Source: Candidatus Hydrogenedentota bacterium
GTDB taxonomy: Bacteria; Hydrogenedentota; Hydrogenedentia; Hydrogenedentales; CAIZGN01
Reading direction: 5' to 3'
Assembly: GCA_903932505.1 (NCBI GenBank)
Contig: CAIZGN010000056.1
Coordinates: 1 to 63,172 of the forward strand
DNA length: 63,172 nt
Position numbers and translations under genes: made by a program. Of this stretch, positions 14,460 to 43,704 are shown in pieces (within the stretch, counting starts at the first letter, position 1; each line of letters opens with the position of its first letter). The notes under the pieces were generated by a model that ran no database searches, was not told the origin of the DNA, and saw only the letters and a list, made by a program, of their open reading frames with translations.

Positions 14460-14855
14460 TTGGCGCTCGCAGTACGAAAAATAACGGTGGAACAGGATGA
14501 TATTTTCCTGATTCACACCCGGCGCATTGCCGACTTGGCCGCCAGCAAAAAGGCAGTCAATCTCGTCGCGGTTGATGTGCGGGGCTTGACCCTCATCGCG
14601 GATAGTTTTGTGATGTGCTCGGCGAACAGCGAACCCCAGCTCAAGGCCATTTTCAACACAGTGCACGATGGCATGAAGGAGGCGGGCCTGCGCCCGCTGC
14701 GCACCGAAGGCTCCTTTCAGGGTGGCTGGATGCTGATCGATTTTGGTTCGATTCTATTCCACGTCTTCCGTCAGACCGCGCGTGAGTTCTACGATCTGGA
14801 CGGATTGTGGGCGGATGCCAAGCCGATTCCTTTGGAACTGGATCTCGACACATAG
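14460..14855 (+). CDS. rsfS: ribosome silencing factor RsfS (iojap-like)
   Basis: 131 aa. KKAVNLVAVDVRGLTLIADSFVMCSANSEPQLKAI...GWMLIDFGSILFHVFRQTAREFYDLDGLW matches the RsfS/iojap family. Confidence 0.85.
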   Translation: MALAVRKITVEQDDIFLIHTRRIADLAASKKAVNLVAVDVRGLTLIADSFVMCSANSEPQLKAIFNTVHDGMKEAGLRPLRTEGSFQGGWMLIDFGSILFHVFRQTAREFYDLDGLWADAKPIPLELDLDT

Positions 14856-14866
14856 GGGTGTCTCTC

Positions 14867-15709
14867 ATGTCCCAGGATACACTGACTCCCGATCGTCCGA
14901 CCCTGTATCACTACAAACTCGACCAAATCCTCGGTGAAGGAGGTACGGGCCGGGTTTATCGCGGCATCGACACCATCAAGGGCGATGTGGCGGCCGTCAA
15001 GCTGTTCCACGAGAATTTTTTCCGCAACGCCCTGCATGTGCGCGATCTCGCGAAGTCTATCAAGCGCTCCAACAAGCTTTCCCACCCCAATGTGGTGGGG
15101 ATTTTCGAGTTCATCGACGGAAAAGACGGCCGCTGTATGAGCATGGAGTATGTGGACGGCCCTAATCTGAAGTGGTATATCCTGAATCGGCCATGGAACA
15201 TTCAGGAACGGCTTAACATCACCATTTCGATCTGTTCCGGTTTGCAGTATCTGCACGACAATGGATTTATGCACCACGATTTCAAGCCGTCGAACGTGTT
15301 GTTCACGCGGCGCGGCGTTCCCAAGGTCGCGGACTTTTCCCTGTACGGCAACAGTTACCTGCTGGAGTTGTTTGCGGGGGCGGTCGGAGAACAGATTACG
15401 CCGATGTTTGTCGCCCCGGAGTTCATCCGCAGGGAGAAAGCCACGCCGTCCGCCGACCAGTATTCGCTGGGGATCACCATGTACATGATGTTTGCCGACC
15501 GGGTTCCCTTTCCCGTCGACAGTATTCAGCGCCTCTACCAATGCCACCTGCACTACCTTCCTGATCATCCGAGCCAGGCAAATCCCAAATGCCCACGTGC
15601 CCTGGGCGATGTCATCATGAAGATGATTGCCAAGAAGACCTCGGATCGGTTTCGGGATTGCGACGAGATTCGCGCCATCCTGACCACGATGAATCAGAGC
15701 CGGATTTAA
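14867..15709 (+). CDS. stand-alone Ser/Thr protein kinase domain protein
   Basis: ATG at 14867, 11 nt after rsfS. Hanks-type motifs: LGEGGTGRVYRG (P-loop), AAVKLF (VAIK-like), HHDFKPSNVLF (catalytic loop), VADFS (DFG variant), FVAPEF (APE), DQYSLG. About 280 aa with no extra domains. Confidence 0.8.
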   Translation: MSQDTLTPDRPTLYHYKLDQILGEGGTGRVYRGIDTIKGDVAAVKLFHENFFRNALHVRDLAKSIKRSNKLSHPNVVGIFEFIDGKDGRCMSMEYVDGPNLKWYILNRPWNIQERLNITISICSGLQYLHDNGFMHHDFKPSNVLFTRRGVPKVADFSLYGNSYLLELFAGAVGEQITPMFVAPEFIRREKATPSADQYSLGITMYMMFADRVPFPVDSIQRLYQCHLHYLPDHPSQANPKCPRALGDVIMKMIAKKTSDRFRDCDEIRAILTTMNQSRI

Positions 15710-15728: not shown

Positions 15729-15757
15729 TTGACATCCCGACTGAATTCCAGTACATT
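15729..15757 (+). promoter_or_regulatory. possible sigma-70-type promoter upstream of the HEPN-SNF2 gene
   Basis: TTGACA (15729-15734), a 17-nt spacer, then TACATT (15752-15757), about 77 nt upstream of ATG 15834. Pattern match only. Confidence 0.3.
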
Positions 15758-15833
15758 GTGCGGAGTGCTGTAATAGACCTTGAGACGGGAAGATCAATGC
15801 CGTTCCATAGGGGAGCGGTCAGCGGGGAAGGCC

Positions 15834-18800
15834 ATGGAACTGGAAACTGGAACGAGGAAAGCGCAGGAATTGGTTGCGCCGCTACTAGGGGGAGTCACCT
15901 CTCATCTGGCCCGCTTTCTTAACCATGTCCTTCCGGCCATCGGGGACGATTGGTGGAAGAAGCTGGTCGTGGATCGTCTTTCGGTCAATCAGCAGCAGCG
16001 CCTGGCGCATCAGCCGGGCCCCTCACTAACAAGCCTCGATCTGGCCGCCTTACTGCGGGTTCTCGACCAGAACTGGTTTGAAATTACATCAAAGAATCAT
16101 CTTTCCGCCGAGGCCCGCCATTATGTGAAGGAGATGCAAACCATCCGCAATCGATGGGCGCATGCGGGCACGGATGGAGTTCCCGGCGAGGACGTTTACC
16201 GCGATCTGGATACACTTCAGCGTTTCGCTGCCGCAATTGGCGCGGACGAAGCGTTTCTTGAAGAGATACGCTTCGCAAAAAAGTCCATGCTGATTAGGGA
16301 ATCGCCCATGAGCATCCAAGTGAAGGAAGAGGCACCCCAAGATCCAGCCCCAAGGCTGGAGGGTGGCGCGGAATTCGCTCCAGGTCAGATGGTCATGTTG
16401 AAATCCAATCCCGCGATCCAGGGTGCCGTAATCGAAGTCCTTTTCTCCTCGCAAGAGAACCGCTTCAAGGTTTTCATGGGTGGGGGAATCCAGATCTACT
16501 ACGCTTCCCAACTTCAAGGGATTGTTCCGGCGGAGGAGAGGCAACCGGTAACTTGCGAACAATTTCATGCCCGCCTCACGGCGCTGCAAATTCTACATCC
16601 CGGCCTTTCCACGCTCTATTCGCTAAATACCGCCCGTGTCGATTTCATTCCCTATCAATTCCGGCCTGTGCTCAAGTTTATCCGTTCGGATCGCCCACGC
16701 CTGCTGATCGCCGATGGAGTCGGCGTGGGTAAGACCATCGAGGCAGGCCTTATCCTTCGAGAACTGCAGGCAAGGCGCGATCTTCGCTCCGTGCTCATTA
16801 TCTGCCCACGCCCCTTAATCACCGAGTCCAAGTGGCTCAATGAGATGAAGCGGTTCGAGGAACACTTTACCCATCTTGATGGCCCTGGTCTGAGGCATTG
16901 CATCAATGAAATGGATCTCGACGGGCAATGGCCGGAGCAGCACTCACGGGTAATCGTTCCATATTCCCTGTTTGATGAAACCCTTCTATATGGCCCTGAC
17001 CCGGGCAACAAACGGAAGCGCAAGAAGGGACTCCTAGCCCTGGATCCCCCTCCGCGCTTCGACTTGGTTATCGTGGATGAGGCGCACCACATTAGAAACC
17101 CGGAGACCTTCAGTCACAAGGCGGTTCGATTCTTTTGCGATCACGCCGAGGCCGTGCTCTTTCTCACGGCCACCCCCATACAACTTGGAGCAGACGACCT
17201 TTTTGTGCTGTTGAACACGCTGCGCCCGGATCTGATCATCGACAAGGCCAGCTTTGAGCACATGGCGGAGCCCAACCCATTCATCAATCAGGCTGCGGCG
17301 GCTGCCCGAGCCCAAGGGGATGGATGGGCGGGCCGAACATCGTCATACCTGAGCGAGGCCGCATCAACCGCATGGGGACAGGCAATTCTGAAACCAAACC
17401 CCGAATTCACCGATATGCAACGGCAGCTTTCAGAGGATGGTGGTATTTCTCCAGAGGAACGCATCAGGCTGATTGCCGATATTGAATCCTTACACACTTT
17501 TGCGGGAATCATCAACCGCACCCGGCGTCGGGACATTGGGGACTTCACCCTCCGTAAATCCCAAACCGTAACGGTGGAATTCACGAGTGCGCAAAGAGAA
17601 CTCCACGATGCGATCTTACAAGTTCAAGCGAAGATATTTCTGGCGATACATGGCGACAAAAACGTCAAATTCATGATGACCACCATCCGGCGGCAAGCCG
17701 CCAGTTGTTTGTTCGGACTTGCGCCATTTCTCCAAGAGATTCTAAGTCGGCACTTGGACGAACTGGCCTGGGAAGAGGCGGATGATTCAGCAACTGTCGC
17801 CGATGTGAAAGCTATCGACAAGATAGAAAGGGAGATTCAAGCCATTCTAAAAATGGCGGAAAACCTCGATCCTTTCGATCCGAAATTAGAAGCATTGCGG
17901 AAAATCATCCGGAACAAACAGAACCTTTCCAACAACAAGATCATGCTTTTCAGCAGCTTCCACCACACGCTTTACTATTTGCGTGACCAATTAGGGACCG
18001 GTGAATTCCGCATCGGCCTCATCCACGGCAAGACTCCGGACGAAGATCGCATGGATCTTAGGAGTCGCTTTGAAAGCCCGCGCGAAGAGGAAGACGCGCT
18101 TGATGTCCTGCTTTTCTCCGAAATCGGTTGTGAAGGCCTCGATTATCAATTTTGCGACTGCATCGTGAATTATGATCTGCCGTGGAACCCCATGCGGATC
18201 GAACAACGCATCGGTCGCATTGACCGAAACGGGCAGAGAAGCGAATCCGTGGCCATCTACAACCTGGTCACGCCTGGAACCGTCGACGCCAGCATTTACG
18301 AGCGGTGCCTGCTTCGTATCGGAATATTCGAGCATGCCATGGGCGATGCCGAGGAAATCCTCGGCAAAATCACCCGGGATATTCGCAATATCGCGGAAGA
18401 TCTCCAGCTTTCAGAAGAAGAACGCAACCACAAGCTCCAGCAATTGGCAGACAATGAAATTCGTTTAATCCAGGAACAGAACGCGCTGGAGGAAAAGCAA
18501 GTCGAACTGTTTGGCATTCGGGTACCACAGGATCATATGAAAAACGAAATTGAGGATGCGTCCAGTTTCTGGCTCTCGCCCACGGCCATCCAGCAACTCA
18601 TAAGCTTCTATCTCAAAGAAACCTGCGAAAAAGATCAAGACTTCATCCTCGGCGAGAAACCGCTCAAGACGCTTCGGCTTTCACAGGAAGCGCGGTCTGC
18701 CTTGCGCAATGATCTCCAGAAACTGTCCCGGCTGAAAAGCACCGTATATGGCGAATGGGACAGATGGCTGAAAGGCGGCGATCCCAATCTCTCCATCACC

Positions 18801-19433
18801 TTTGACGCCCAATGCGCGGCCCAGAATCCGAAGGCCGCCTTCATCACACCCATTCATCCTCTCGCCAAACAGGCGGCTGTGGCGTTGGGCCAGGAAAGGC
18901 CCGCAGCGGCTGCCTTCCAAGTGACTTCCGATGAGGCCCCTCCCGGCACCTACGAGTTTGCCATCTATCAGTGGCAGTTTCAGGGTATCCGTCAAGACGT
19001 GGTTCTGCAACCTGTGGTCAATTCACCGGAGATCACGCCTTTGCTCACTGACCTCCTGGCCAAGGCCGTCGAGACCGGTAGTTCCCGCAACTTTGATGTA
19101 CCTGCGACCGCATCGAGTGCGCTCGATGCTCAACACCACGTACTCTGGACTCAGGCACGTGAAGACCACGTCGAAAAAACGCGCCGGATGGCCCAGTACC
19201 GCAAGGAAAGCCTTAACACCAGCCACGCTGCAAGAGTGGCGTTGCTAAGAGAGCAAGCCGAACAATCCAAAGACGAAAAGATAAGGATAATGCGCCAAGC
19301 GCAAATGGCTTCTGCGGAAGCTGATTACGCTCGGCGCACGCAGGAATTGGATATAGCAGCAGAGCGGGCCGACATTATCGCGGAACCCGTGGCGTATGGG
19401 GTGCTTCAGATTCTTGAGGAGAATGCCGAATGA
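15834..19433 (+). CDS. Swt1-like HEPN domain fused to an SNF2-family (SF2) helicase with a long C-terminal extension
   Basis: Start at ATG 15834 (MELETG, GGGGAAGG upstream); the ORF opens at TTG 15780. HEPN-type Rx4H motif QTIRNRWAHAG (R codon at 16146), preceded by LLRVLDQNWF. Small beta-rich segment GQMVMLKSNPAIQGAVIEVLF...RFKVFMGGGIQIYYASQL, resembling the RapA N-terminal Tudor/SH3-like fold. SNF2 motifs: LLIADGVGVGKTIEAG (I, about 16722), DLVIVDEAHHIRN (II, about 17076), FLTATPIQ (III), LLFSEIGCEGLDYQFCDCIVNYDLPWNP (V), QRIGRIDRNGQ (VI, about 18204). The C-terminal extension is about 400 aa and ends in a coiled coil. Confidence 0.85.
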   Translation: MELETGTRKAQELVAPLLGGVTSHLARFLNHVLPAIGDDWWKKLVVDRLSVNQQQRLAHQPGPSLTSLDLAALLRVLDQNWFEITSKNHLSAEARHYVKEMQTIRNRWAHAGTDGVPGEDVYRDLDTLQRFAAAIGADEAFLEEIRFAKKSMLIRESPMSIQVKEEAPQDPAPRLEGGAEFAPGQMVMLKSNPAIQGAVIEVLFSSQENRFKVFMGGGIQIYYASQLQGIVPAEERQPVTCEQFHARLTALQILHPGLSTLYSLNTARVDFIPYQFRPVLKFIRSDRPRLLIADGVGVGKTIEAGLILRELQARRDLRSVLIICPRPLITESKWLNEMKRFEEHFTHLDGPGLRHCINEMDLDGQWPEQHSRVIVPYSLFDETLLYGPDPGNKRKRKKGLLALDPPPRFDLVIVDEAHHIRNPETFSHKAVRFFCDHAEAVLFLTATPIQLGADDLFVLLNTLRPDLIIDKASFEHMAEPNPFINQAAAAARAQGDGWAGRTSSYLSEAASTAWGQAILKPNPEFTDMQRQLSEDGGISPEERIRLIADIESLHTFAGIINRTRRRDIGDFTLRKSQTVTVEFTSAQRELHDAILQVQAKIFLAIHGDKNVKFMMTTIRRQAASCLFGLAPFLQEILSRHLDELAWEEADDSATVADVKAIDKIEREIQAILKMAENLDPFDPKLEALRKIIRNKQNLSNNKIMLFSSFHHTLYYLRDQLGTGEFRIGLIHGKTPDEDRMDLRSRFESPREEEDALDVLLFSEIGCEGLDYQFCDCIVNYDLPWNPMRIEQRIGRIDRNGQRSESVAIYNLVTPGTVDASIYERCLLRIGIFEHAMGDAEEILGKITRDIRNIAEDLQLSEEERNHKLQQLADNEIRLIQEQNALEEKQVELFGIRVPQDHMKNEIEDASSFWLSPTAIQQLISFYLKETCEKDQDFILGEKPLKTLRLSQEARSALRNDLQKLSRLKSTVYGEWDRWLKGGDPNLSITFDAQCAAQNPKAAFITPIHPLAKQAAVALGQERPAAAAFQVTSDEAPPGTYEFAIYQWQFQGIRQDVVLQPVVNSPEITPLLTDLLAKAVETGSSRNFDVPATASSALDAQHHVLWTQAREDHVEKTRRMAQYRKESLNTSHAARVALLREQAEQSKDEKIRIMRQAQMASAEADYARRTQELDIAAERADIIAEPVAYGVLQILEENAE

Positions 19434-22400
19434 TACAAGAGTTGATGGAAAAGCGCAAGAGATGGGTCGAGGCAAACCGTGAGAATGGATTTGAAACGGG
19501 TCTGAAACACCTGCTCACGGAGCTCTACCCGGACAACGCCCACTTCATCTACGAACTCCTGCAGAACGCCGAAGACGCACATGCTCAAGAAGTGCGGTTC
19601 ATCTTGGAGGAGAACCGCGTCGAATTTGAGCATAATGGAGAAAGGCTCTTCTCTTTCGAAGACGTCGACGCTATTACCAGCATCGGATTCAGCACCAAAC
19701 GCGACGACCCCACCAACATCGGGAAATTTGGCGTCGGCTTCAAGGCGGTTTTTGCCTATACCGAAACACCGGGAATCGAATCGGGAGAGTTTCATTTCCA
19801 AGTCCATGACATGGTAGTGCCGGAACCGATCGGCACTGCGCGGATCAAGCCGGGTGACAAGCAAACGCGATTCATTCTGCCTTTTAACAACCCGAAGAAG
19901 TCAGCGGATCGCGCGCGAAACGAGATCGAAACGCTTCTAAGAAAACTCGACGCGGCCACGCTGCTCTTCCTCACGCGTATCCGCAAGATCGAATATCTGC
20001 TTCCTGATACGTCTCTTGGCTACATCGAACGAATAGGGCATGGCGACCACCGATTCGAGATTCGCGTACAACAGCCTGATGAACTCGCCCCTTCGTCTAC
20101 TTGGTTTCTCAAGTTCGACAAAGAGGTTCAGGTGCAAGACGACGAGGCTGAGAATGAAGGCCAACAGCTGAAAACTTGCCGAATCGTCTTGGCCTTCGGA
20201 TTGTCGCCCGTCGCAACAAGAGCGGGCATTAAGGAAAAGAAAGACGTCGGTGCCATACCCGAATGGGAACTTGTGCCACTCGAGCGGGGGCGCGTCTGTA
20301 TCTATTTCCCGGCGGACAAGGAGACCTCCAATCTCCGCTTCCATCTACACGCACCATTTGCCTCCACTGTGGCGCGGGATAGTGTGCGCGATTGCCCGGG
20401 AAACAACGCACTACGCGACCACTTGGCCGAACTACTGGCCGAATCTATGCACGCCATTCGGGACCAAGGCCTGCTGACCGTGCGCACGTTGGCGCTGCTA
20501 CCCAACAACAAGGACAATCTGCCGACGCTCTATCAGCCACTTCTGGCCCGGCTGGTTAGGGAATTCCAGGTTCAGGATCTTGTCCCGATGAAACGCGACG
20601 GACATGCTTCGGCACGAAGCATATTTCGCGGGTCCGCCAAGCTGCAGGTGGTCATTGACGACAAGGATTTGGCCCATCTACTTAACAAACCGAAAGGGGC
20701 TCCGCTTTGGGCCGCAAATCCCCCACAACGGCATCAATGTGAGGACAATTTCCTCGCGGGCTTAGGTATCGAGCAATTAGAGTTGGAAAAACTGGTTCTC
20801 CATTTCTCATCTATCCCGGAAACGATGGAAGCATGGCTCAAGTCCAAGAGTATGCCATGGCACCGGAGTTTCTATGCGCTGCTCATCACGACCTTTTCGG
20901 AGAACGCCAGCTCTGAGTACCAAGCAACTCTCCGAAACCTTCCGCTTGTTCGGCTCGCTTCTGGAAGATATCAAGTCGGCCGCCAATCTTGTTTTCCTGT
21001 TGACCAGATGGATGTAAAGCATAAGCTGCAGCCGGTTGAGCGAGCAACGTACTCAGTTGACAATCAGGACGTTGATCAAGCAAAGAAATTTCTCAAGGCC
21101 ATAGGTGTCCGAGAATATAGTTTGACCGATGTGGTTGTCGATTTGATCATTCCAGAATATGAAGAACATGTCCCGCGAAAACGACATTTCAAGCACATCG
21201 CTACGATTCTCAAGGCAGTGGGGGAGGCGCCCAAACTAGAAAAGGAAAGCCTGAAGAAGCATCTCGGTGATACGGCATTCATTCTTGTGGAAAAGCCCGG
21301 CAAATCTAGTCACGCCTACGCAAAACCTGCAGAACTCTATTGGAGCTCCGAAAAGGACACCTCCCTTTGGAGGGAAAATCATGGAGTCAAATTCATTGAT
21401 GACGAGTATAACAAATCAAATCAGGAGTTTTTCCAAGAGCTCGGCGTCCAAGAGTTCGATATCGTTGAGAATGTCATCACGGCTATTCTTCCCTCGTATA
21501 GGGCCCCTGTTCCGCTAAAGCAGCACCGGCACGACATAGGGAAAATCTGTCAGGCGCTTGACACTGACTCTCAGGAGAAAAAGGCGAAACTACAGGATGC
21601 CCTATGCAAATCCTCGTTCGTTTTGACACAAACAGAATCGTCGACCGGTCCGCTCTACAAGAAACCGACTGAAGTGTCTCTGTTTGACAAGGAATGGTTC
21701 TCCTTCTTCCAAGATGGAGCCCCCCCACACTTCCTCAGTGAGGAATACGACGGAAAGATGGTTGAGAACTTTAAGGACCTCGGAGTTACTGCCCTCAATC
21801 CTATTGAGGCCGCGAAGACGATAATTTTCCGCATGGCGCATCTTTCATTGGAATCAGAGATTGACCGAAAACGCCATCTATCGAACATGCGGTTTCTCGC
21901 GGAAACTTGTTGGCCCCGCATCAAGAAGCAGACCGAAAAGGCCAGCCGAGAAAACTGGGTAAAGGAGTATAAAACACGGGCGTTCATCATCACCGAATCT
22001 GCTGATTCAAGACCGATGGCCTATAGAAGACCGGGCGACCTCTATTTCCACAGTGATGGCCTAGGGGCATACTTTACCGGAAATGAAGAAGGAAAGTTCG
22101 TCTGGGGGGAATATGGGGCCGCGATTCAGGAGTTCTTGGAGGCCTTTGGGGTGTCCCATGACGCGCGAGTCGAGAAAAAGAAAGAAGATCAGGCTCACAA
22201 TATCAGCATCGAAGCCAGTTGGGGCCATCATAAGCGCGGATTAGAGGGGTATGATCCCGAAATTAAGGTCGACGGCTTGCATGATGCGCTAATACTGCCT
22301 CCTTCTATGGAGAAGAGTCGGTATATCTGGAAGAAAATCGCCCTTCCTCATCAGCAGTGTATCACGGGATATATTGAATCCTCGTCGCGGCAGACCTTTG

Positions 22401-23197
22401 AGGGGAGCGAGAAGACGAAGGCGGAATCTGAAGGATTTGGCCGGTTCCTCATTGGAAGCCGGTGGTTGCCCAACAAAGAAGGTGAGTTCGTTTCGCCTAC
22501 AGAAGTAACACTCGACGTTTTGCCGGAGGATTTTCAAGGAGACCAAGTGTTGGCCAGTCAATTGGGCATGAAGCAGAATTACATTGGTGAACTCGCAAAA
22601 AAATGCGGTATTTCACCGGATCGTCTTGAGTTCACAAAAGACAACCCAGAAGAAATTGACCGGCTAATTGCTGAAAAAGAATCAAGGAAAAACAAACCGG
22701 AATTCCCTACTCAGGCGATAACGGATTCAGACCGCCGACGGGAAAAAGTTGCCGAGCAGCATGCTGATGCTCCTGCTAAGGAGTACGAGAAACGCGAGCG
22801 AAGCGTCCGGACTAGCGAGCCCGAAATTGATCGCAGAACAAGCCTTCGAAGCATGTATACAAACCCTGATGGGATAATGGTGTGTCAGGTCTGCGAGCAT
22901 GAAATGCCGTTCAAGAAACGCAATGGCGAGTATTACTTTGAAACGGTGGAGGCTCTTTCTAAAGACTATTTCACCAAAGAGCATGAGGCGCAGTTCTTGG
23001 CATTGTGCCCAGTGTGCGCGGCCAAGTATAAGGAGTTTGTAAAGTCCGATAACCATGCTATGGATGAATTCGTGAGCACATTGAAAGTTTCAGAGACGCC
23101 CGAGGTTCCGCTGAAACTGGGCGATTGGGATACTAGCCTCCGGTTTGTTGAAACGCATTTTCTTGACATCAAGACTATCCTCGGAGTCCTGGAATAA
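19430..23197 (+). CDS. sacsin-like GHKL (Bergerat-fold) ATPase with internal repeats and C-terminal zinc ribbon
   Basis: 1255 aa. The start overlaps the upstream stop (ATGA at 19430-19433). GHKL N-box FIYELLQNAEDA (19553-19579), then EFEHNGERLF and G-box NIGKFGVGFKAVF (19721-19744), the pattern seen in sacsin/MORC-type ATPases. Four to five repeats of about 113 aa each begin xF(L/F)xxLG(V/I) (aa 439-915). C-terminal CQVC...(44 aa)...CPVC (22883-23017). Confidence 0.8.
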   Translation: MIQELMEKRKRWVEANRENGFETGLKHLLTELYPDNAHFIYELLQNAEDAHAQEVRFILEENRVEFEHNGERLFSFEDVDAITSIGFSTKRDDPTNIGKFGVGFKAVFAYTETPGIESGEFHFQVHDMVVPEPIGTARIKPGDKQTRFILPFNNPKKSADRARNEIETLLRKLDAATLLFLTRIRKIEYLLPDTSLGYIERIGHGDHRFEIRVQQPDELAPSSTWFLKFDKEVQVQDDEAENEGQQLKTCRIVLAFGLSPVATRAGIKEKKDVGAIPEWELVPLERGRVCIYFPADKETSNLRFHLHAPFASTVARDSVRDCPGNNALRDHLAELLAESMHAIRDQGLLTVRTLALLPNNKDNLPTLYQPLLARLVREFQVQDLVPMKRDGHASARSIFRGSAKLQVVIDDKDLAHLLNKPKGAPLWAANPPQRHQCEDNFLAGLGIEQLELEKLVLHFSSIPETMEAWLKSKSMPWHRSFYALLITTFSENASSEYQATLRNLPLVRLASGRYQVGRQSCFPVDQMDVKHKLQPVERATYSVDNQDVDQAKKFLKAIGVREYSLTDVVVDLIIPEYEEHVPRKRHFKHIATILKAVGEAPKLEKESLKKHLGDTAFILVEKPGKSSHAYAKPAELYWSSEKDTSLWRENHGVKFIDDEYNKSNQEFFQELGVQEFDIVENVITAILPSYRAPVPLKQHRHDIGKICQALDTDSQEKKAKLQDALCKSSFVLTQTESSTGPLYKKPTEVSLFDKEWFSFFQDGAPPHFLSEEYDGKMVENFKDLGVTALNPIEAAKTIIFRMAHLSLESEIDRKRHLSNMRFLAETCWPRIKKQTEKASRENWVKEYKTRAFIITESADSRPMAYRRPGDLYFHSDGLGAYFTGNEEGKFVWGEYGAAIQEFLEAFGVSHDARVEKKKEDQAHNISIEASWGHHKRGLEGYDPEIKVDGLHDALILPPSMEKSRYIWKKIALPHQQCITGYIESSSRQTFEGSEKTKAESEGFGRFLIGSRWLPNKEGEFVSPTEVTLDVLPEDFQGDQVLASQLGMKQNYIGELAKKCGISPDRLEFTKDNPEEIDRLIAEKESRKNKPEFPTQAITDSDRRREKVAEQHADAPAKEYEKRERSVRTSEPEIDRRTSLRSMYTNPDGIMVCQVCEHEMPFKKRNGEYYFETVEALSKDYFTKEHEAQFLALCPVCAAKYKEFVKSDNHAMDEFVSTLKVSETPEVPLKLGDWDTSLRFVETHFLDIKTILGVLE

Positions 23198-23271: not shown

Positions 23272-23614
23272 ATGACCCAGCTGCTGTCACTTCCGGATAA
23301 TCCAGGATTTCTCGCCGTACTGAACGATCGCATCAGGCATGCCCGCCCCTCCGCTGTCCGCGCCGTCAATCATGAATTGGTTCTGCTTTACCGTGATATC
23401 GGGTACGGCATTGTGGAAAACCAACAGCCTGCAGGGTGGTTCGATGCGGCCGTGGAACACCTCCCCGCCGGTCTTCGCGCGGCAATTCTGCCCGGCGTAT
23501 TCCTGTGCCCAATTTCTTGAAGAGGCTGTTCAAGAATTGAAGAAAAGTGGGCAGCAGTCTCTTCCGCCTGGCGCGACCAACAAGCTCATTTGCCGGATGA
23601 AGGCGGCGGGATGA
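23272..23614 (+). pseudogene. frameshifted, truncated remnant of a DUF1016/YhcG-family (PD-(D/E)XK nuclease) gene; only the N-terminal domain is left
   Basis: Frame 1: LNDRIRHARPSAVRAVNHELVLLYRDIGYGIVENQQPAGW..VEHLPAGLRAAILPGV. This matches the N-terminal helical domain of YhcG/DUF1016 proteins as I remember them (..RIR.A...A.RAVN.EL..LYW.IG..I.E.Q...GWG..VV..LS..L..EFPG..GFS). The frame stops at 23520. Similarity seems to continue in another frame (..QFLEEAVQ..GQQSLPPGATNKLI, compare QQ.LPWGHN..L) up to 23614. No nuclease domain follows. Confidence 0.5.
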
Positions 23615-30138: not shown

Positions 30139-33100
30139 CTATTCCGCCGGGCAAATCACCCGGAAGCCCACGTTGTAGACGTGCTGCCAAGGCTCGTAGG
30201 CTTGGCGGCTCGAGGCGGTGGCGTGTTTGGGTCGGTCGAACCATGAACCGCCGCGCACGGATTTCTTCTCCCGTCCATCGGCGTTGCTGGCTTCCTGATA
30301 GGGATAGGGGCGGTAGGCACTGCGGGTCCACTCGGCGGCATTGCCGAGCATGTCACACAAGCCCCACACATTGGGCTGATACTTGCCCACCGTCGTCATG
30401 ATCTTCTCGCCATCGCTGAAACGGGTATCCTTGATCAGGAAATCTTGGAACGGCGAGGGATTTTTGATGGGTTGCGGGTCGATGCCATCCACCGCCAGCA
30501 GCTTGAGGGAGAGGTCGGCCAAATTGGCGAAGGGGGAGAAGTCCGCATCGGCTTCGCCAAAGTAGAACGGCGAGGCCGCGCCCGCACGACAGGCCCATTC
30601 CCATTGGGTCTCGGAAGGAAGAGAGAATCCGCGCCCGGTCTTCGTGGCGAGCCACTGACAGAAGGCGGAGGCCTCGTCCCAACTGATTCGGATGGCGGGC
30701 ATTTCAGGATCCTGCACGGAGTAGCCGGGTCGCGTATGATCCTTGTGGTGCTGGTCAATGACGCCGTTGTCGTGTTTGGGGTCAAAGGTCTGATACTGGC
30801 GATTGGTGATTTCGGTCACACCCATCCAGAACGGCTTTTCGATTCTGACCTGAGTCTGCGGGAATTCATCATTTGCGCCAAAACGGCTGCCCATGATGTA
30901 TTCGCCCGCCGGGATGAGGCTCAGCCGCAAGGTCACGCCGTTGCCAAGATCGAGGGTATCCTCCGTCTTAGCGCCGGCCGCTTTCTGGTTTTCGGCAGCC
31001 TTTTTCGGATTGATCGGCCAGTCCGGGCAATCGAGGCTTTTCTTCGGACGCTCGGGCTCGGGCTGAGGCTGCACGAAGGCCACCGGGGCGGCGGGGGGAG
31101 GAAGTTGCTCCGGATCTTCGGTGCTAGCGGCATAGCAGGCCCTCATGGCGAGGCGACGCTTGTCGAAGTCCTTCGGAATGCTGCCATAGGCCTCAAGCCA
31201 CGAACCCTTGTCCGGCACATTGAGGTCGATCCAGGTGTAGAGGCGATCCCAGGCCTCATTATCGAGCTGGACGCCGTGGTGGCCTTTTTCAAGCATCTGG
31301 ATGAGCTCACTGGTGCTGGCGTGGAACTCAAGCGGCGTCAGGATATGGTAATCGCTCTCGGGGCCCGGACGTCGCACGTAGGGATGCAGTTCCAGATAGG
31401 ACGTGCTGAACCCGCCGGGGGTCTTGTCATCCCTGAGTCGCAGGTCAGGCTTGGGCCCGCCATCGGCTGAGGGTGATCCATCGTGACAGCCGATGCAGAA
31501 CTTGTCGAGCACCGGCTGCACCTCGCGCTTGAAACTGAAACCGCGCGCGGGTCCGTACCAGGGTTGGATGTCCTTGGGAGCATTGCGCGCTGCCACATTG
31601 GCACCCAGCGCGGGCGACATGTTCTGCCGTTCGTGACAGCCCGCGCAACTGACCATTTCACCGGGCATGCCGACGAACCAGCTGCGCATGAGTTGCAGCG
31701 CGCGACCCTGCGCGTCGAGTGGTTGGATGGCCACAGGGGTGTTCGCGGGAATTTTGAAGGAGGCAGAGCCATCCTCGTCCACCGGGACAGTTCCGAGAAT
31801 CCGGCGCACGTCCCACGAGCCTTCCACGCCCACATTGATGTGCCCGCCGATGTTTGGATAGGCGTAGTGGAAGCCGTAAACCCGAAGCGATTTCACCGTG
31901 CCTCTTGGGACATCCCGCAGTCCGGGACCGGCGTAGACGTCCGACACATAAACCGTCGCGTCCTTGGATTCGAGGTTGACCTTGTCTGGAATCGTCGGCG
32001 GTCTTTGGCTCTTGCGCAGGGGGAGGGGTTCAAAGAGCGCGTAGCCCGGTTCCTCGGCCAGCAACTGGCGATTGCCGAAGACATCCACGAGATAGACGCC
32101 CCAGGCCGCATCCGCCGTGGGCTTGCACGAAACCAGCAGATAGTTTTTGTTCAGCGGGTAAGGATGCAGAAACTTGGGCCAGACATTGTCGACCAGCGTG
32201 TCCATGATGACCGGCTCGACTTTCTTGCCGTAACCGGGAATGCGTTGCACCACCCCATCGCCCTCGGTGCGACCCTTCGCGGGGTCGAGCAGAATCAATT
32301 CACCCATGCGCGGCACGCCGTGGTGTCCGGAAATAATGGCGGCCACCATGCTGGGTTCGCCGGGCACCGGCCGTGCATAGAAGGTCGAGTTGGGCCAGTA
32401 CGAGTTGCTGCCGTAGTACTCCGCCTGGTTGGTGCCATCGGGATTCATGCTGAAGAGGAGACGGGAGAAGTAGTGCGGGGTGTCGGAGTACTCCCAGCGG
32501 GTGTACATGATGCGCCCGTTTTGCAGCAAGGTCGGGCACCAATCGTGATCCTGATCAAAACAGAGTTGCCGGATGGCTGAACCATCGGCATTCATCAAGC
32601 ACAGATTGGCGACCGTGTTGGAACCGCCCACGCAGGGCACCCCCTGAAAGCACCGGGTGGATCCAAAGACAATGCGCTCGTCGGGCAGGTAACAAGCGTC
32701 ATAGTTGTCCACATCGGGTTCGGTGCCGGGGGTCACTTGGCGCAGGCCGTTGCCATCGGCGCCAATCTCGAAGATCTGCCAGCGGTCATTCGTGCCCGGC
32801 ATGGAGAAGAGCATCTTCCCCGCATCGAAATGCAGATCCACATCGCCCACGAACTCGCCGTTCTGCGGGCGGAAAAACGTTTTCGGAACGGCCCCTTTTT
32901 CCTTGTAGGCCAACTGATCGATCTCGTTGTCATAGCCTTTCTGGCCCATGGCGCAGTTACCCTGCCAGTTCTGGGGCAGTCCGAGATTACCCGCGCCGCG
33001 TTTCACCAGAAGAAGCGTATCGAAGTCGAGCAGAGGGTTGGCGAGAAGTGCTTCGCGTTGCAGCTCGAGCAGTTGCTGCAGCTCCTGAACCCCGGCGTCT

Positions 33101-34131
33101 TCCCCCCGGCCCAGCGCGCTTTCGATCTCTGGAATGCGGCCCTTGCAGGCATCCACGCGGGCGAGAAAATCCTTGCCCTTGGGGTAGGTGGCCGAAAAGG
33201 CGGTATCGAGATCCTCAATGGCGAGGCGCAGCGCCACGAAATCGACCTGGCGCAATTTCGCGAGGTTTTCCCGGAAAACGCTCGCGCGCACATACAGGTC
33301 CAACCATTGCGGATCATCGGAAGGCACACGCCCGTCCTTGAGCGCGCTTGCGGCCTGTTGGATGGGCTGGGCGGCTGTTCCCGTTTCACTCAGCGTACGC
33401 GCGAACATGTCCATTTGCGCGTCGGTGTTGTCCGGGCGGAGGAACCAGGCCAAACCCGCACTACCCGGCGCATCGCGCTTGATCCACGACGATTCTCGAG
33501 GAAAATCCTTTTCAATTTTCGGCCAGTAGAGGTTGGAAGGATCGGCGGGCGACGCAAAATAGAACGAATACGCGCCCTGCGCATGAAAGACCTTCACCAA
33601 GAGTGTGTTTTCACCGGCGTGCAAAGCCAGTTCGATGTTCTCCGGATTGGTGGCTAGGGCTTCTTTGCGAAAAACCTCCTGTCCGTTCAGCCACAGTTGC
33701 AGACCCTGACTGTCGCCACCGAGGGCAATCGGCAGGCTCAGGTCCTTGGCGGCCGTGAGGGTGCGGTACAGATAGATGACGGAATTGTCCGGCCCCGAAA
33801 GCCCGCTCGTGGCATAGTCGAGGTATTCCAATCGGGCGTTCCACACCCGCTCGTCCTTGGGATTCTTCGCGTTGATGTCCACGCCCTGTTCAGGGAAAGC
33901 CGCCTCGGCCAAGGACGAAACTCGGATGGGATTGGTGGTGTACCACACCCCGAGAGTCACGGGCCATTGGGCCTGGGTTTGCTGAGCGGCCGCACGGCAA
34001 GTCCGCATGGTTTCCTGCCAGGACGCGCCTTTGGCGTATTCACGCGGCAGTGCTTCTCCGGCGCGGGCCGGGATGCAGAGGCTCAGGCCAACGCAGGCCA
34101 ACAACAAGGACGCCAACAATGATTTCCGCAT
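30139..34131 (-). CDS. giant secreted multidomain protein: N-terminal lectin/PA14-like region, beta-propeller-like middle, two CxxCH motifs, C-terminal FGE-sulfatase (SUMF1/PvdO-type) domain
   Basis: 1330 aa. Signal peptide MRKSLLASLLLACVGLSLCIPARA. SCAGCHERQN (31633-31647) and FCIGCHDGSP (31483-31497). The C-terminal ~260 aa (LIPAGEYIMGS...ISWDEASAFCQWL...RLPSETQWEWACRAG...GNAAEWT...VRGGSWFD...GFRVICP) match the FGE-sulfatase fold. Confidence 0.8.
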   Translation of the reverse strand: MRKSLLASLLLACVGLSLCIPARAGEALPREYAKGASWQETMRTCRAAAQQTQAQWPVTLGVWYTTNPIRVSSLAEAAFPEQGVDINAKNPKDERVWNARLEYLDYATSGLSGPDNSVIYLYRTLTAAKDLSLPIALGGDSQGLQLWLNGQEVFRKEALATNPENIELALHAGENTLLVKVFHAQGAYSFYFASPADPSNLYWPKIEKDFPRESSWIKRDAPGSAGLAWFLRPDNTDAQMDMFARTLSETGTAAQPIQQAASALKDGRVPSDDPQWLDLYVRASVFRENLAKLRQVDFVALRLAIEDLDTAFSATYPKGKDFLARVDACKGRIPEIESALGRGEDAGVQELQQLLELQREALLANPLLDFDTLLLVKRGAGNLGLPQNWQGNCAMGQKGYDNEIDQLAYKEKGAVPKTFFRPQNGEFVGDVDLHFDAGKMLFSMPGTNDRWQIFEIGADGNGLRQVTPGTEPDVDNYDACYLPDERIVFGSTRCFQGVPCVGGSNTVANLCLMNADGSAIRQLCFDQDHDWCPTLLQNGRIMYTRWEYSDTPHYFSRLLFSMNPDGTNQAEYYGSNSYWPNSTFYARPVPGEPSMVAAIISGHHGVPRMGELILLDPAKGRTEGDGVVQRIPGYGKKVEPVIMDTLVDNVWPKFLHPYPLNKNYLLVSCKPTADAAWGVYLVDVFGNRQLLAEEPGYALFEPLPLRKSQRPPTIPDKVNLESKDATVYVSDVYAGPGLRDVPRGTVKSLRVYGFHYAYPNIGGHINVGVEGSWDVRRILGTVPVDEDGSASFKIPANTPVAIQPLDAQGRALQLMRSWFVGMPGEMVSCAGCHERQNMSPALGANVAARNAPKDIQPWYGPARGFSFKREVQPVLDKFCIGCHDGSPSADGGPKPDLRLRDDKTPGGFSTSYLELHPYVRRPGPESDYHILTPLEFHASTSELIQMLEKGHHGVQLDNEAWDRLYTWIDLNVPDKGSWLEAYGSIPKDFDKRRLAMRACYAASTEDPEQLPPPAAPVAFVQPQPEPERPKKSLDCPDWPINPKKAAENQKAAGAKTEDTLDLGNGVTLRLSLIPAGEYIMGSRFGANDEFPQTQVRIEKPFWMGVTEITNRQYQTFDPKHDNGVIDQHHKDHTRPGYSVQDPEMPAIRISWDEASAFCQWLATKTGRGFSLPSETQWEWACRAGAASPFYFGEADADFSPFANLADLSLKLLAVDGIDPQPIKNPSPFQDFLIKDTRFSDGEKIMTTVGKYQPNVWGLCDMLGNAAEWTRSAYRPYPYQEASNADGREKKSVRGGSWFDRPKHATASSRQAYEPWQHVYNVGFRVICPAE

Positions 34132-38510: not shown

Positions 38511-40325
38511 TTAGGGATGCGGGGTGGCATCGAGAATCTGCCGCATTTTGGGTACCAGAATCTCGGTGCGCAATGGTTTCACAATGAACGCGCTGGCACC
38601 CTGCTCAATGAGGTGGTCTTCGGAGTAGGGGGTGTCGGCCAATCCGGTCACGAGAATTCTCATGGCGGGGCGATGGGCGAGGCAGCGCGCGATGATCGGT
38701 GCGGGGGTTTGCTGGAGGAGGGTGGCGTCTAGCAGCATAACGTGGATTTCTTTGTGGTGCGTCTGGATCTTGTGAAGCGCGGCGGTAATGTCGAAGGTGG
38801 GCAACACGGTGTAGGCCAGCCGCTCGAGCATGGTGCGGGTGGCCTGTGCGGCATGGCGATCAGGATCAGCGATCAGCACGGTCTCCATCGCGGAAGGGAA
38901 AGCCCATCCACCGGGGGATGCGGCGTGATTTTTTTCTTCCACGGCGGGAAGATAGATGGTGAAGGTACTTCCATGCCCTTCGGTGCTCTTCACAGCAATA
39001 TGTCCGCCGTGATCCCGGACGTTTCGGCTGGCGGAGGGGAGTCCCATTCCACGTCCGCGGAATTTGGTGGTGATGAATGGCTCGAAGATCTTGTCGAAGA
39101 GTCTCGGGCTGATACCCCGACCGTTGTCCTCAACTGCGATGAGCAGATAGGGGCCCGCCTCCAAGTGGGCAAACGAGCGGGCAAGCTCTGGGCCAATCTC
39201 GATGTTGCGCGTAGCAACGCGGATGATACCTCTGCCGTCAATGGCCTCGAGCGCATTGGTGAGGAGCACGTTGAGCGCCTGAAGCAGTTGTTGTTGGGAG
39301 GCCATGCATCCGTAGGGGTGTCGCTCAAGATCCTGTTCGAGACGGATATGCGCGGGCAGTGCTTCGCTCTGGAGGTGGATAGCCTGACGGACGACCTCAT
39401 TGATGTCGATCAGCCTCCAGTGACCTTCGGCGGTGGGTGGTGGGGCGAGGGAGACAAAGGGATCTTCCTGCTCAATCTTTGCGCGCTGAACAGGGCTGGA
39501 CGTGGGGGCGAAGGAGGGAGCGGATTCCTGAAAAATCCAGAAGAAGCGGCCGCCCTCGAGGTCGAGATAGACGCTGGTCACCTGAACTTCCATAACCTGA
39601 TTGTTCCGGAAGCGATGCGCCGCCCTGAACTCGGCGGTACCATCCTCGACGGCTTTCTGATTGCGTGAAGCGAGGTCTTCGGGGCCTGCGGAAACATCAA
39701 ATTCCTGGACGGGGGCACCGATAACCTCCGTGCGGGGATGTCCGGTAAGGGCGCAGTACGCATCGTTCGCCTCGATAATTCGCCCCGTGGCGTCGACGAC
39801 CCAGAAGGGCTGCTCCCCGATTTGGGCGAGGACGCGGTTTTGTTGTTCAGTGCGTCGTGCGCTGGTGATGTCTCTCGCGGCGCAGAGAAGACCGATGCAC
39901 TCGTTCTCGAGAGAGAACATGGGGCTTTTGTAAAAACGAAGCCATTGCCGCCGCTGCCCCACAACTTCCTCCTCCCAGGAATAGGGTCGCCCGCTGCGGC
40001 GCACCATGGCATCGTAGCGGTGAAACGAGGCGGCGATGTGGTCCGGGAAGATCTGAAAATCGTTTCGGCCCCGGATTTCTTCCTCGGTGCGCCCAGCGAA
40101 TCGGCAAAAGGCGAGGCTCGCGGCCTGATAGGTGCCATCCGGTCGCTTGACGGCGAAAAGGTCGCCGTTGCTGTTCAATACGGCTTCAAGGAGTACGCGA
40201 TACTGATGAAGCTTCCGGTCAGCATCGGCGTTTTCAGCGTGCCGGGCTTCGAGCTCGCGGATACGCTCCCGCAGGACGGCCATCTTTCGGCCTACGGAGT
40301 TTTTGCTTCGCTTGGGGTTTTCCAT
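38511..40325 (-). CDS. PAS-PAS-HATPase_c-receiver protein (histidine-kinase-like, no recognisable HisKA/H-box)
   Basis: 604 aa. N-terminal coiled coil, then two PAS-like segments. ATPase N/G boxes LLTNALEAI, VEDNGRGISPRLFDKIFEPFITTK and GRGMGLPSA. C-terminal receiver (VLIADPD...VMLLDATL...FIVKPL). I found no H-E-x-x-N/T-P type phospho-acceptor box between the PAS and ATPase parts. Confidence 0.8.
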   Translation of the reverse strand: MENPKRSKNSVGRKMAVLRERIRELEARHAENADADRKLHQYRVLLEAVLNSNGDLFAVKRPDGTYQAASLAFCRFAGRTEEEIRGRNDFQIFPDHIAASFHRYDAMVRRSGRPYSWEEEVVGQRRQWLRFYKSPMFSLENECIGLLCAARDITSARRTEQQNRVLAQIGEQPFWVVDATGRIIEANDAYCALTGHPRTEVIGAPVQEFDVSAGPEDLASRNQKAVEDGTAEFRAAHRFRNNQVMEVQVTSVYLDLEGGRFFWIFQESAPSFAPTSSPVQRAKIEQEDPFVSLAPPPTAEGHWRLIDINEVVRQAIHLQSEALPAHIRLEQDLERHPYGCMASQQQLLQALNVLLTNALEAIDGRGIIRVATRNIEIGPELARSFAHLEAGPYLLIAVEDNGRGISPRLFDKIFEPFITTKFRGRGMGLPSASRNVRDHGGHIAVKSTEGHGSTFTIYLPAVEEKNHAASPGGWAFPSAMETVLIADPDRHAAQATRTMLERLAYTVLPTFDITAALHKIQTHHKEIHVMLLDATLLQQTPAPIIARCLAHRPAMRILVTGLADTPYSEDHLIEQGASAFIVKPLRTEILVPKMRQILDATPHP

Positions 40326-40372
40326 GACTTGCTGCCGCCCGGATCCCCGGGCAGGTCGCTGTCGCTCCTGGG

Positions 40373-43228: not shown

Positions 43229-43704
43229 CCTTTTCGTCCTTGCGCGCGCAACTCGCGTGCGCCATCGTAAACGTGACCTGACACTTTTTCCATGCTTCCA
43301 AAGACCGCAAGTTCAACGGGGCGGCTGAACCTGCTCCGACCTTCAATTTCAGGCCGAGACGGGTCATATGCCGCAGGCGCTTATTTGCCTCTACCACATA
43401 TTGTATACGATGAAGTACGAAAAACACAATATGTTGGATGTGAACTTAGAAAGAATCTATAGAGGGGAAAAATGCCTATTTCGCAGACCGACAAAAACCA
43501 CCACAAGGCGTCGTCCGTGAAATAGCGAGGACTACCCATGGTATTGATGCCAAGGCGCGTCGTGTGATGTAAAATAAGGCTTACCTTGATTTTTCGAAGC
43601 CGAAATGCTTCAATGACGGCTGCGCATGCGAGCATTAAGACTGCGTTCCCTGATTGATTCGGGGCGGTGCTTGCTTGATGAAGGCCTACGGGAGGACGAA
43701 TACT

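Follow-up and report, generated by a model that had tools for sequence, protein, structure and literature searches.

Two adjacent genes in a stretch of Candidatus Hydrogenedentota DNA (63,172 nucleotides, nt; contig CAIZGN010000056.1 of assembly GCA_903932505.1; hereafter the window) encode a HEPN-SNF2 helicase (gene 1) and a sacsin-type GHKL ATPase (gene 2), and relatives of these two genes form a conserved, tightly coupled operon rather than being chance neighbours. The pair is best read as a real, widespread and uncharacterised operon, a new two-gene variant within the known conflict systems that combine GHKL ATPases with superfamily 2 (SF2) helicases. From the functional perspective, it is probably a self-contained, horizontally mobile two-gene system against phages or mobile elements, and a helicase-partnered relative of the Tiamat ATPase. 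This reading is based on the homology of both genes to parts of validated defence systems (TmtA and DrmD), on their pairing, on the family-wide conservation of catalytic motifs, on the mobility and defence context of the cassette and on a sensor-like diversification of the ATPase. Additionally, the trio of HEPN, SNF2 and sacsin-type ATPase recurs in a type III restriction-modification (R-M) operon, and relatives of the ATPase are fused to nucleases in defence neighbourhoods. The organisation of the pair is as follows, in window coordinates and with protein lengths in amino acids (aa).

15834..19433, plus strand: gene 1, HEPN-SNF2 helicase, 1199 aa (open reading frame, ORF, and translation)
15903..16241, plus strand: Swt1-like HEPN domain, residues 24-136, with the Rx4H motif R105-N-R-W-A-H110 (Pfam PF18731, 1.2e-19)
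16371..16553, plus strand: beta-rich segment, residues ~180-240, where the core helicase begins in homologues that lack HEPN
16692..18233, plus strand: SNF2 ATPase core (SNF2-rel_dom, residues 287-484; Helicase_C, residues 684-800; Pfam)
18234..19430, plus strand: DrmD-like C-terminal extension, residues 801-1199, with a conserved helical tail at its end (PADLOC DrmD profile)
19430..19433, plus strand: ATGA stop/start overlap, candidate translational coupling (sequence)
19430..23197, plus strand: gene 2, sacsin-type GHKL ATPase with a TmtA-like N-terminal half, 1255 aa (ORF and translation)
19541..19810, plus strand: Bergerat-fold ATP-binding domain, residues 38-127, with N-box ELLQNAEDA, HNG and GKFGVGF (NCBIfam NF047352, 1.4e-25; Pfam SACS)
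19811..21109, plus strand: conserved region after the ATP-binding domain, to residue ~560 (invariant columns; common to TmtA profiles)
21056..22069, plus strand: three repeat modules of ~110 aa, residues ~543-880 (self-BLAST)
22034..22579, plus strand: conserved alpha/beta domain, residues ~869-1050 (confident in the AlphaFold model)
22694..23194, plus strand: C-terminal Cys4 domain, residues 1089-1255, HNH-like without the catalytic His (AlphaFold, Foldseek and alignment)

An earlier note on this DNA had described two large genes overlapping by ATGA, and both the sequence and the translations bear this out. The 4-nt overlap is visible at the junction of the two genes (gccgaATGAtac), and GAGGAG lies at 19416-19421, 8 nt upstream of the ATG of gene 2. 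At the other end, a longer form of gene 1 starting from TTG at 15780 is possible, and the ATG at 15834 is favoured by public gene calls and by homologue alignments. The alignment of gene 2 was scanned against one genome per species, which returned at least 532 genomes with a relative; 80 loci were kept, 76 of them judgeable upstream. In about 70 of these 76 loci, found through gene 2, a homologue of gene 1 is located immediately upstream on the same strand, the remainder comprising four loci of a second operon type (the type III R-M type described below) and two without a helicase. In the reciprocal scan, a homologue of gene 2 lies downstream in 75 of 76 metagenome loci found through gene 1, with the ATPase gene abutting in 70 of the 75 and an ORF of ~215 aa, of unknown family, standing between in the other five. 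Of 89 homologous pairs, 38 overlap by 4 nt or 1 nt, and 71 have junctions within -32..+37 nt. The suggestion that a HEPN-SNF2 gene would be the conserved neighbour of gene 2 therefore holds for the helicase, although the HEPN domain itself is not constant. No conserved third gene was found in Pfam and PADLOC scans of the nearest neighbours.

Two kinds of inserted ORF were observed between the paired genes. The ORF of ~215 aa separates a HEPN-SNF2 gene from an ATPase gene of ~30% identity (L098 11570-12208, L135 7163-7810, L147 11564-12211, L136 6915-7574 and L149), and may be a third component of a subtype. A different ORF, of ~205 aa, stands between helicase and ATPase in HEPN-less loci (L053 9285-9935, L055 9253-9870 and L063 8901-9509) of Tectimicrobiota- and Latescibacterota-type genomes, in which the ATPase gene overlaps at its end with a MazF/PemK-like gene. 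Neither ORF matches any Pfam or PADLOC profile.

Within the pair, exchange or diversification of the ATPase gene proceeds separately from the motor gene, which stays highly conserved. Homologues of gene 1 that are 62-66% identical to the window protein have partner ATPases of 25-78% identity, and in 98% of 2485 locus pairs the motor is better conserved than the ATPase, with a median ATPase identity of 35% when the motors are 85-95% identical. In one locus pair the motors are 96% identical and the ATPases 36% identical. The molecular aspects of this exchange can be followed in L118 and L124: a DNA identity of 96% over gene 1 ends at the gene junction, is absent over the body of the ATPase gene and returns at 88% over its last ~350 nt, which correspond to the Cys4 domain. 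The flanks of these two loci are unrelated, and their shared DNA lies inside the cassette only. In another locus, L087, an 86%-identical 3'-end (Cys4) remnant of another ATPase allele (L087 6839-7133 against L095 7654-7948) lies downstream of the present, unrelated ATPase gene and, as judged from this alignment, is the scar of an ATPase allele replacement. The middle repeats are the most variable region (median pairwise identity 26%), and in every region of the ATPase the identity correlates weakly with that of the motor (Spearman 0.09-0.25). Such a pattern of allele replacement and diversification is the one expected of a recognition subunit.

Gene 1 combines a predicted RNase domain with an SNF2 motor whose nearest relatives are DISARM DrmD and RapA. 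Its translation contains the motifs TIRNRWAH, GVGKT, DEAHH, LTATPIQ and QRIGRIDRNGQ, and Pfam detects HEPN_Swt1 (1.2e-19, residues 24-136), SNF2-rel_dom (1.8e-17) and Helicase_C (2.5e-19). The PF18731 score of 71.1 bits (cut-off 27.5), together with the Rx4-6H motif, places the domain in the Swt1-like HEPN family, with predicted RNase activity; R-N-x-W-A-H is kept in nearly all of 111 HEPN-bearing homologues, with C for W as one minor variant. In the motor, GVGKT is present in 143 of 144 homologues and DEAH in all 144. More than 6780 homologues of gene 1 were found, of which the top 120 are all ~64-66% identical, full length and of the same architecture. The best PADLOC match is DrmD (PDLC02623, 7.6e-113), which aligns residues 181-1060 with positions 3-877 of a profile of 1040 and thus reaches well into the C-terminal extension, where many columns are invariant; BrxH, HmaA, DpdE and ZorD match more weakly. 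The NCBIfam model DISARM_DrmD (NF038317) aligns residues 661-1159 at 291.5 bits, under its cut-off of 610. By sequence, the closest solved structures are those of RapA (E ~1e-37), and searches of PDB sequences with the HEPN domain and the beta segment returned nothing useful. The Tudor/SH3-like nature that the earlier note gave to this beta segment is thus putative; the segment is conserved as the start both of the HEPN-less partner helicases and of the DrmD profile PDLC02623.

The presence of HEPN varies among the helicases. In the species-level set, about half of the partner helicases have no HEPN and start at the beta segment, their alignment with gene 1 beginning at residues ~175-186, so that HEPN is not a constant part of the system. 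A separate HEPN gene does not take its place: a hidden Markov model (HMM) of the gene 1 HEPN domain, run over every ORF of 50 aa or more in 81 loci, matched fused proteins only, and a small ORF preceding the helicase on a Rhizobium plasmid gave no match to it. Since HEPN is missing from about half of the helicases, the constant core of the family consists of the SNF2 motor and the sacsin-type ATPase, and the window pair represents the HEPN-bearing form. In some helicases other N-terminal domains replace HEPN, as observed in L012 6201-9998 (first 258 aa) and L057 5797-9381 (first 180 aa).

Gene 2 contains ELLQNAEDA, EHNG and GKFGVGFKAVF as well as four cysteines (C1152, C1155, C1193 and C1196), and all the motifs quoted for both genes in the earlier note were found in the translations; its domain calls (HEPN, SNF2 motor and GHKL ATPase) likewise proved right in Pfam and NCBIfam profile searches. 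Gene 2 matches Pfam SACS (1.5e-18) and the NCBIfam sacsin N-terminal ATP-binding-like domain (89.6 bits, cut-off 50), and its sole solved relative is the Hsp90-like domain of sacsin (PDB 5v44-47, 5e-15 to 7e-14). The N-box residues E..N..D are kept in nearly all of 103 ATPase homologues, the acidic position before D varying in three. The first ~680 residues match all nine PADLOC TmtA profiles (best PDLC03972, 9.1e-69, residues 2-679). The repeated modules that had been noted in gene 2 are three copies of ~110 aa (~543-650, ~651-760 and ~761-880; pairwise E 1e-13 to 1e-5), followed by the beginning of a fourth; no other part of the family varies as much, and typical members have fewer of them than the window copy. 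More than 3371 homologues of gene 2 were found, typically of ~1040-1080 aa, and a search of 5.8 billion proteins returned no relative of the window ATPase above 53% identity. AlphaFold (AF2) models of residues 300-1255 (956 aa) and 869-1255 (387 aa) are confident for residues ~320-590, 869-1050 and 1089-1255, with low per-residue confidence (pLDDT) in the window-specific repeats. The alpha/beta domain at residues ~869-1050 had no significant match to the PDB in Foldseek.

What had been taken for a Cys4 zinc ribbon does hold four cysteines, but is most likely a degenerate HNH-like domain, probably inactive according to the model and the family alignment. Foldseek searches of the PDB with the 956-aa model gave helical-repeat noise and weak HNH matches only; with the 387-aa model the top matches were all HNH proteins (EcoKMcrA, Cap5, the HNH of Cas9 and ScoMcrA), the best at E 0.023 with a TM of about 0.2 and none of them significant, and for this reason the domain is called HNH-like and not a nuclease. 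In the alignment, EMPF replaces the DHxxP of HNH and QFLALCPxCA replaces NLxxLCxxCH, so that the positions of the catalytic His and of the last metal ligand hold other residues. The domain marks a distinct clade; it falls into 1007 clusters at 50% identity and invariably forms the very C-terminal end of proteins of ~1000-1070 aa.

An alternative would be a DNA-targeting, restriction-like system in which the Cys4 domain is an active, derived HNH nuclease fed by the SNF2 motor, HEPN being optional. The exclusively HNH nature of the top structural matches, the absence of HEPN from about half of the family and the fusion of ATPase relatives to HNH or DUF3883 nucleases all favour it, as do the operons combining MORC, SNF2 and HNH described by Iyer et al. 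2008 (PMC2292703). Given the non-significant Foldseek values, the replacement of both the general-base His and the last metal ligand, and the lack of a linked self-protection methylase in the main operon type, such a system is possible, if rather unlikely. The fusions in question occur among plasmid relatives of the ATPase, which are joined to DUF3883 (beside NERD and Qat genes), joined to an HNH nuclease, or paired with a HEPN-less helicase beside an ABC-three-component system.

The second operon type joins the same parts to a restriction system.

L059 1485-13141, also L066, L070 and L073: type III R-M variant operon

In L059, L066 and L073 the operon consists of five genes, namely a helix-turn-helix (HTH)-SNF2 gene (DrmD-like, 4.7e-190), an AbiJ-type HEPN gene, type III Mod, type III Res and, closing the operon, a sacsin-type ATPase ~36% identical to gene 2; L070 has the same arrangement except that the HEPN gene is missing. 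HEPN, SNF2 and sacsin-type ATPase are thus found together again, here in a clear restriction context.

Regarding its distribution, the cassette is found in phyla that include Hydrogenedentota, Desulfobacterota, Latescibacterota, Poribacteria, Tectimicrobiota, Planctomycetota, Actinomycetota, Proteobacteria and Bacillota, and also in Chlorobiaceae. This distribution is patchy and discordant with phylogeny, and the flanks differ between loci. Among close relatives of gene 1 on long contigs, those of L001 and L193 directly follow type I R-M genes, that of L195 follows a BREX cluster and that of L191 a DISARM-like cluster. Within the window, GC content is 0.47-0.56 inside the gene pair and 0.60-0.64 slightly further downstream. 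The unrelated flanks, the patchy spread, the R-M, BREX and DISARM neighbours and the lower GC content support, at the level of genome comparison, the view that the cassette behaves as a mobile conflict module. The most frequent Pfam families of the nearest neighbours are ResIII (11), DEAD (8), HsdR-type SWI2_SNF2 (5), HSDR_N (4), Mrr_cat (3) and IS200 transposase (3), these being raw counts, with no background control, among 131 non-redundant nearest neighbours in 63 metagenome loci. An association with defence islands is thus supported, in qualitative terms, for the clade of the window.

Several further features were observed around these relatives. The cluster at 1-9825 of L191/L192 holds an MmeI-type methylase, a HATPase_c_3 protein, a 1309-aa helicase and MZB/DUF1998, PLD and Vsr proteins, and the HEPN-SNF2 protein may serve as its DrmD. 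A superfamily 1 (SF1) helicase (AAA_11/AAA_30/UvrD_C_2) lies just downstream of the pair in three independent neighbourhoods (L001 17111-20335, L191 18733-20352 and L195 17001-20231), with a size of 1074-1183 aa in L001 and L195/L196 and a called size of 539-596 aa in L191/L192; the window lacks this helicase. In 3 of 38 genome loci an RtcB RNA ligase is among the nearest neighbours, which could reflect the repair of RNA cut by a HEPN-type RNase, or merely related genomes. Finally, the Poribacteria ATPase ORFs of L016 (9362-13138) and L022 (9332-13099) have an N-terminal extension of ~210 aa, either a real domain or an over-called start.

A number of observations weigh against a defence role. 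The cassette of the window lies next to housekeeping genes, with no other defence gene found in the 63 kb, and the close relative in L189 is flanked by housekeeping genes as well. In the set of diverse genome loci, again with no background control, the nearest neighbours are mostly unrelated and few are defence genes; the defence neighbourhoods anticipated for the family thus exist beside close relatives (R-M, BREX and DISARM), but are sparse in this set. Viral contigs hardly ever carry the pair (4 loci in 2.9 million), a rarity that fits the mostly chromosomal location of Tiamat (PMC10482375). Gene 1 is unusually conserved for a defence gene, with a mean column identity of 81% across phyla. 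As for effectors, no active nuclease was found in gene 2 by Pfam or by AF2 and Foldseek, which gave no match to a restriction endonuclease (REase) fold, and RNA cleavage is not the core mechanism of the whole family, because about half of the helicases lack HEPN and have no split replacement.

Part of this evidence would suit a housekeeping or stress role, in which a RapA-like remodeller of stalled transcription complexes carries an RNA-surveillance HEPN domain and works with a chaperone-type, sacsin-like ATPase. RapA provides the best solved relatives of the very conserved gene 1, housekeeping genes flank the pair in the window and in L189, viral contigs almost lack it, and the eukaryotic counterparts are a chaperone (sacsin) and an mRNA surveillance nuclease (Swt1), according to PMC3710099. 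Gene 1, however, scores 180.6 with the NCBIfam RapA model (NF003426), whose cut-off is 576; the pair is scattered in patches that do not follow phylogeny, its flanks are unrelated and its GC is low; and R-M, BREX and DISARM neighbours recur. The partner gene is, moreover, hypervariable and replaced by recombination, which does not suit a housekeeping complex, and this role is distinctly unlikely.

The mobility of the cassette would equally suit a selfish addiction module, similar to a toxin-antitoxin (TA) pair, in which a HEPN toxin restrained by the ATPase stabilises the cassette or its island. Many HEPN domains are toxins, as stated in PMC3710099, and PIN, MazF and other TA genes often lie beside the pair. 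The putative toxin is nevertheless missing from about half of the cassettes, and two ATP-driven machines of more than 1000 aa each are far more elaborate than known TA modules, which makes this explanation very unlikely; it also overlaps largely with defence by abortive infection and does not exclude it.

Although the earlier note regarded the module as undescribed, its components are not: PADLOC recognises TmtA in the N-terminal half of gene 2 and a DrmD-like protein in gene 1. The two-gene combination itself appears to be unnamed: no paper or profile library was found that defines the pair as a system, within a coverage that left the primary Tiamat paper and DefenseFinder outside. The comparison with Tiamat is based on PADLOC models and secondary papers. 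Tiamat (TmtA) is reportedly, from work by Millman et al. in 2022, a single-gene anti-phage system. Gene 2 resembles it in its N-terminal ~650 aa (GHKL domain and conserved region), which are homologous to TmtA, but covers only positions 7-678 of the 1302 in the profile, and typical members of the family behave alike (P0017, 5-633 of 1302). Tiamat is listed among the single-gene systems with a PD-(D/E)XK domain (bioRxiv 2024.10.26.620412), whereas gene 2 has neither PD-(D/E)XK nor DUF3883, and ends instead in repeats and the degenerate HNH-like Cys4 domain. Moreover, its near-obligate SNF2 partner sets it apart from a single-gene system.

With class 1 DISARM the pair shares the SNF2 core and C-terminal extension of DrmD, homologous to those of gene 1. 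Gene 1 falls nonetheless under the NCBIfam DrmD cut-off, as given above, and DrmD has no HEPN domain and no sacsin-like partner. DrmA, DrmB (DUF1998), DrmC (PLD) and the DrmMI methylase were not found in Pfam scans of window ORFs on both sides of the pair. Neither was any match related to ZorA or ZorB among the neighbouring window ORFs scanned with Pfam, and gene 1 matches ZorD weakly (1.8e-16); the absence of DISARM and Zorya partners asserted in the earlier note is thereby confirmed. The relationship to RapA is similarly distant, gene 1 being under the equivalog cut-off although RapA is its best solved relative. That the pair represents two independent adjacent elements, a stand-alone Tiamat and an orphan DrmD from a degraded class 1 DISARM, is scarcely credible, for although PADLOC labels TmtA and DrmD separately and L191/L192 lie beside a DISARM-like cluster (MZB/DUF1998, PLD and a large helicase), the adjacency is near-obligate, with constant order and strand and frequent stop/start overlap, the DISARM_DrmD score is below cut-off, the window has no DUF1998, PLD or methylase gene, and the TmtA profiles match only the N-terminal half of gene 2.

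Broader precedents exist for the combination: a HEPN(Swt1)-SNF2 fusion is reported in PMC3710099, and the theme of GHKL ATPase, SNF2 helicase and nuclease in PMC2292703. In the latter, Iyer, Abhiman and Aravind 2008 described GHKL ATPases with SWI2/SNF2 helicases and nucleases in mobile, R-M-like loci, and proposed an ATP-driven clamp or looper that works with the helicase and the nuclease. The window pair agrees with these MORC and paraMORC operons in that a GHKL ATPase gene is conserved beside a SWI2/SNF2 helicase gene, and differs in that gene 2 matches sacsin-type and not MORC models (sacsin is not mentioned in PMC2292703) and that the helicase carries its nuclease as a fused HEPN of RNase type, instead of being linked to a DNase. 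The main operon type has no linked DNase or methylase, while the L059-type variant has Mod and Res.

Within the Hma system (PMC11232893), HmaA is an SNF2-DUF3883 protein that protects against phage T4, HmaB a DUF1156 methylase and HmaC a DUF499 ATPase; in addition, Anantharaman 2013 (PMC3710099) describes a Swt1-family HEPN fused to DUF499 and operon-linked to SNF2-DUF3883. The domain types in common are the SNF2 helicase, the ATPase partner and the Swt1-family HEPN, and the core of gene 1 matches HmaA (7.5e-39). In the window pair, however, HEPN is carried by the helicase, the ATPase is of the GHKL and not the AAA+ type, there is no methylase or DUF3883, and gene 2 has no HmaC match in PADLOC. 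Anantharaman et al. 2013 also list as catalytically active a HEPN(Swt1-like)-SWI2/SNF2 fusion, WQE_15321, with the domain fusion of gene 1; it appears there as an architecture in a table, and the passages covered give no partner gene, operon or function for it. As regards eukaryotic sacsin, it belongs to the ATP-binding domain family of gene 2 (Pfam SACS, NF047352) and, according to PMC3710099, also combines this ATPase with HEPN, although it is a giant chaperone with no SNF2 partner, and its HEPN derives from a prokaryotic toxin-antitoxin system and not from the Swt1 family.

If the pair is the two-gene defence system proposed here, its mode of action may be sketched, each step with lower confidence than the system as a whole. 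Computation shows which domains are present, that their motifs are conserved, how the operon is built, and that it is mobile and diversifies; the mechanism beyond these is inferred. The proteins of gene 1 and gene 2 would form a complex, in which the ATPase might dock by its Cys4 domain and the helicase by its C-terminal extension. The hypervariable GHKL protein would act as an ATP-driven sensor or clamp for a feature of the invader, either a DNA state or a phage protein, and the SNF2 motor would translocate on DNA or act on transcription complexes in the manner of RapA. Upon triggering, HEPN would cut RNA, whether phage transcripts or, in abortive infection, host RNA. The HEPN-less members may act by motor and clamp alone or through neighbouring nucleases, an option that the type III R-M variant fits. 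A more ambitious form of this proposal, speculative and rather unlikely as a whole, sees in the pair the principal operon form of an extensive anti-phage system without a name, in which the hypervariable GHKL ATPase, shuffled by recombination and serving as a specificity subunit comparable to HsdS of type I R-M, would direct a near-invariant RapA/DrmD-like motor, and HEPN would cut RNA at transcription complexes on foreign DNA. The pairing of a sacsin-type ATPase with HEPN occurs twice here, as a Swt1-type domain fused to the helicase and as an AbiJ-type protein in the type III R-M variant, and under this proposal it would be the prokaryotic counterpart of the ATPase-HEPN combination of human sacsin.

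The surroundings of the cassette contribute two further features.

15729..15757, plus strand: sigma-70-like promoter candidate TTGACA-17-TACATT (consensus scan, 10/12 matches)
23272-23520, plus strand: 82-aa ORF with the N-terminal part only of DUF1016/YhcG, a PDDEXK nuclease family (E 4.7e-07, below the Pfam cut-off)

The promoter candidate lies in the 124-nt gap between a Ser/Thr kinase gene and gene 1, and is only suggestive because the total of such sites in the region does not exceed the expectation from shuffled sequence. The genes upstream are gatA, gatB, rsfS and the Ser/Thr kinase gene, and those downstream comprise unknown ORFs and a response regulator-HD gene; the housekeeping genes around the cassette include secA, gatA, gatB and rsfS. 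The kinase gene (14807-15709) was considered as a component of the system and rejected, since it does not recur beside the pair in other loci. The statement that no methyltransferase or restriction nuclease is adjacent holds in the window with one qualification, the 82-aa ORF, which looks from its partial profile match like the remnant of a nuclease gene; in a different locus, a full YhcG_C protein is one of the nearest neighbours of the pair. Around the cassette, no Rfam RNA and no meaningful flanking direct or inverted repeats were found, nor did the window flanks hold leftovers of earlier alleles of gene 1 or gene 2. Elsewhere in the window, a strong AT skew (-0.28 to -0.31) at 40000-43300 coincides with a 951-aa minus-strand ORF (40373-43228) that has a weak coiled-coil-type Pfam match only; a 1330-aa protein on the minus strand (30139-34131) combines a hydrazine-synthase-alpha middle domain with an FGE-sulfatase domain; and Ser/Thr kinase and two-component genes are numerous, which together with this protein is suggestive of a Planctomycetota-like host.

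Should the pair prove to be a defence system, its family would be a large one, with at least 532 species-level genomes and thousands of matching proteins, which current annotation would split into an 'orphan DrmD' and a partial 'Tiamat'. The mechanism of Tiamat is unknown, and the pair offers a natural two-protein version of it, with separable motor, sensor and effector. The combination of a near-invariant motor with a freely exchanged ATPase would provide a clear-cut example in which to follow the diversification of recognition modules in bacterial immunity. Finally, the role of HEPN in sacsin, the human ataxia protein, is not understood, and a bacterial sacsin-type ATPase beside HEPN offers a testable parallel.

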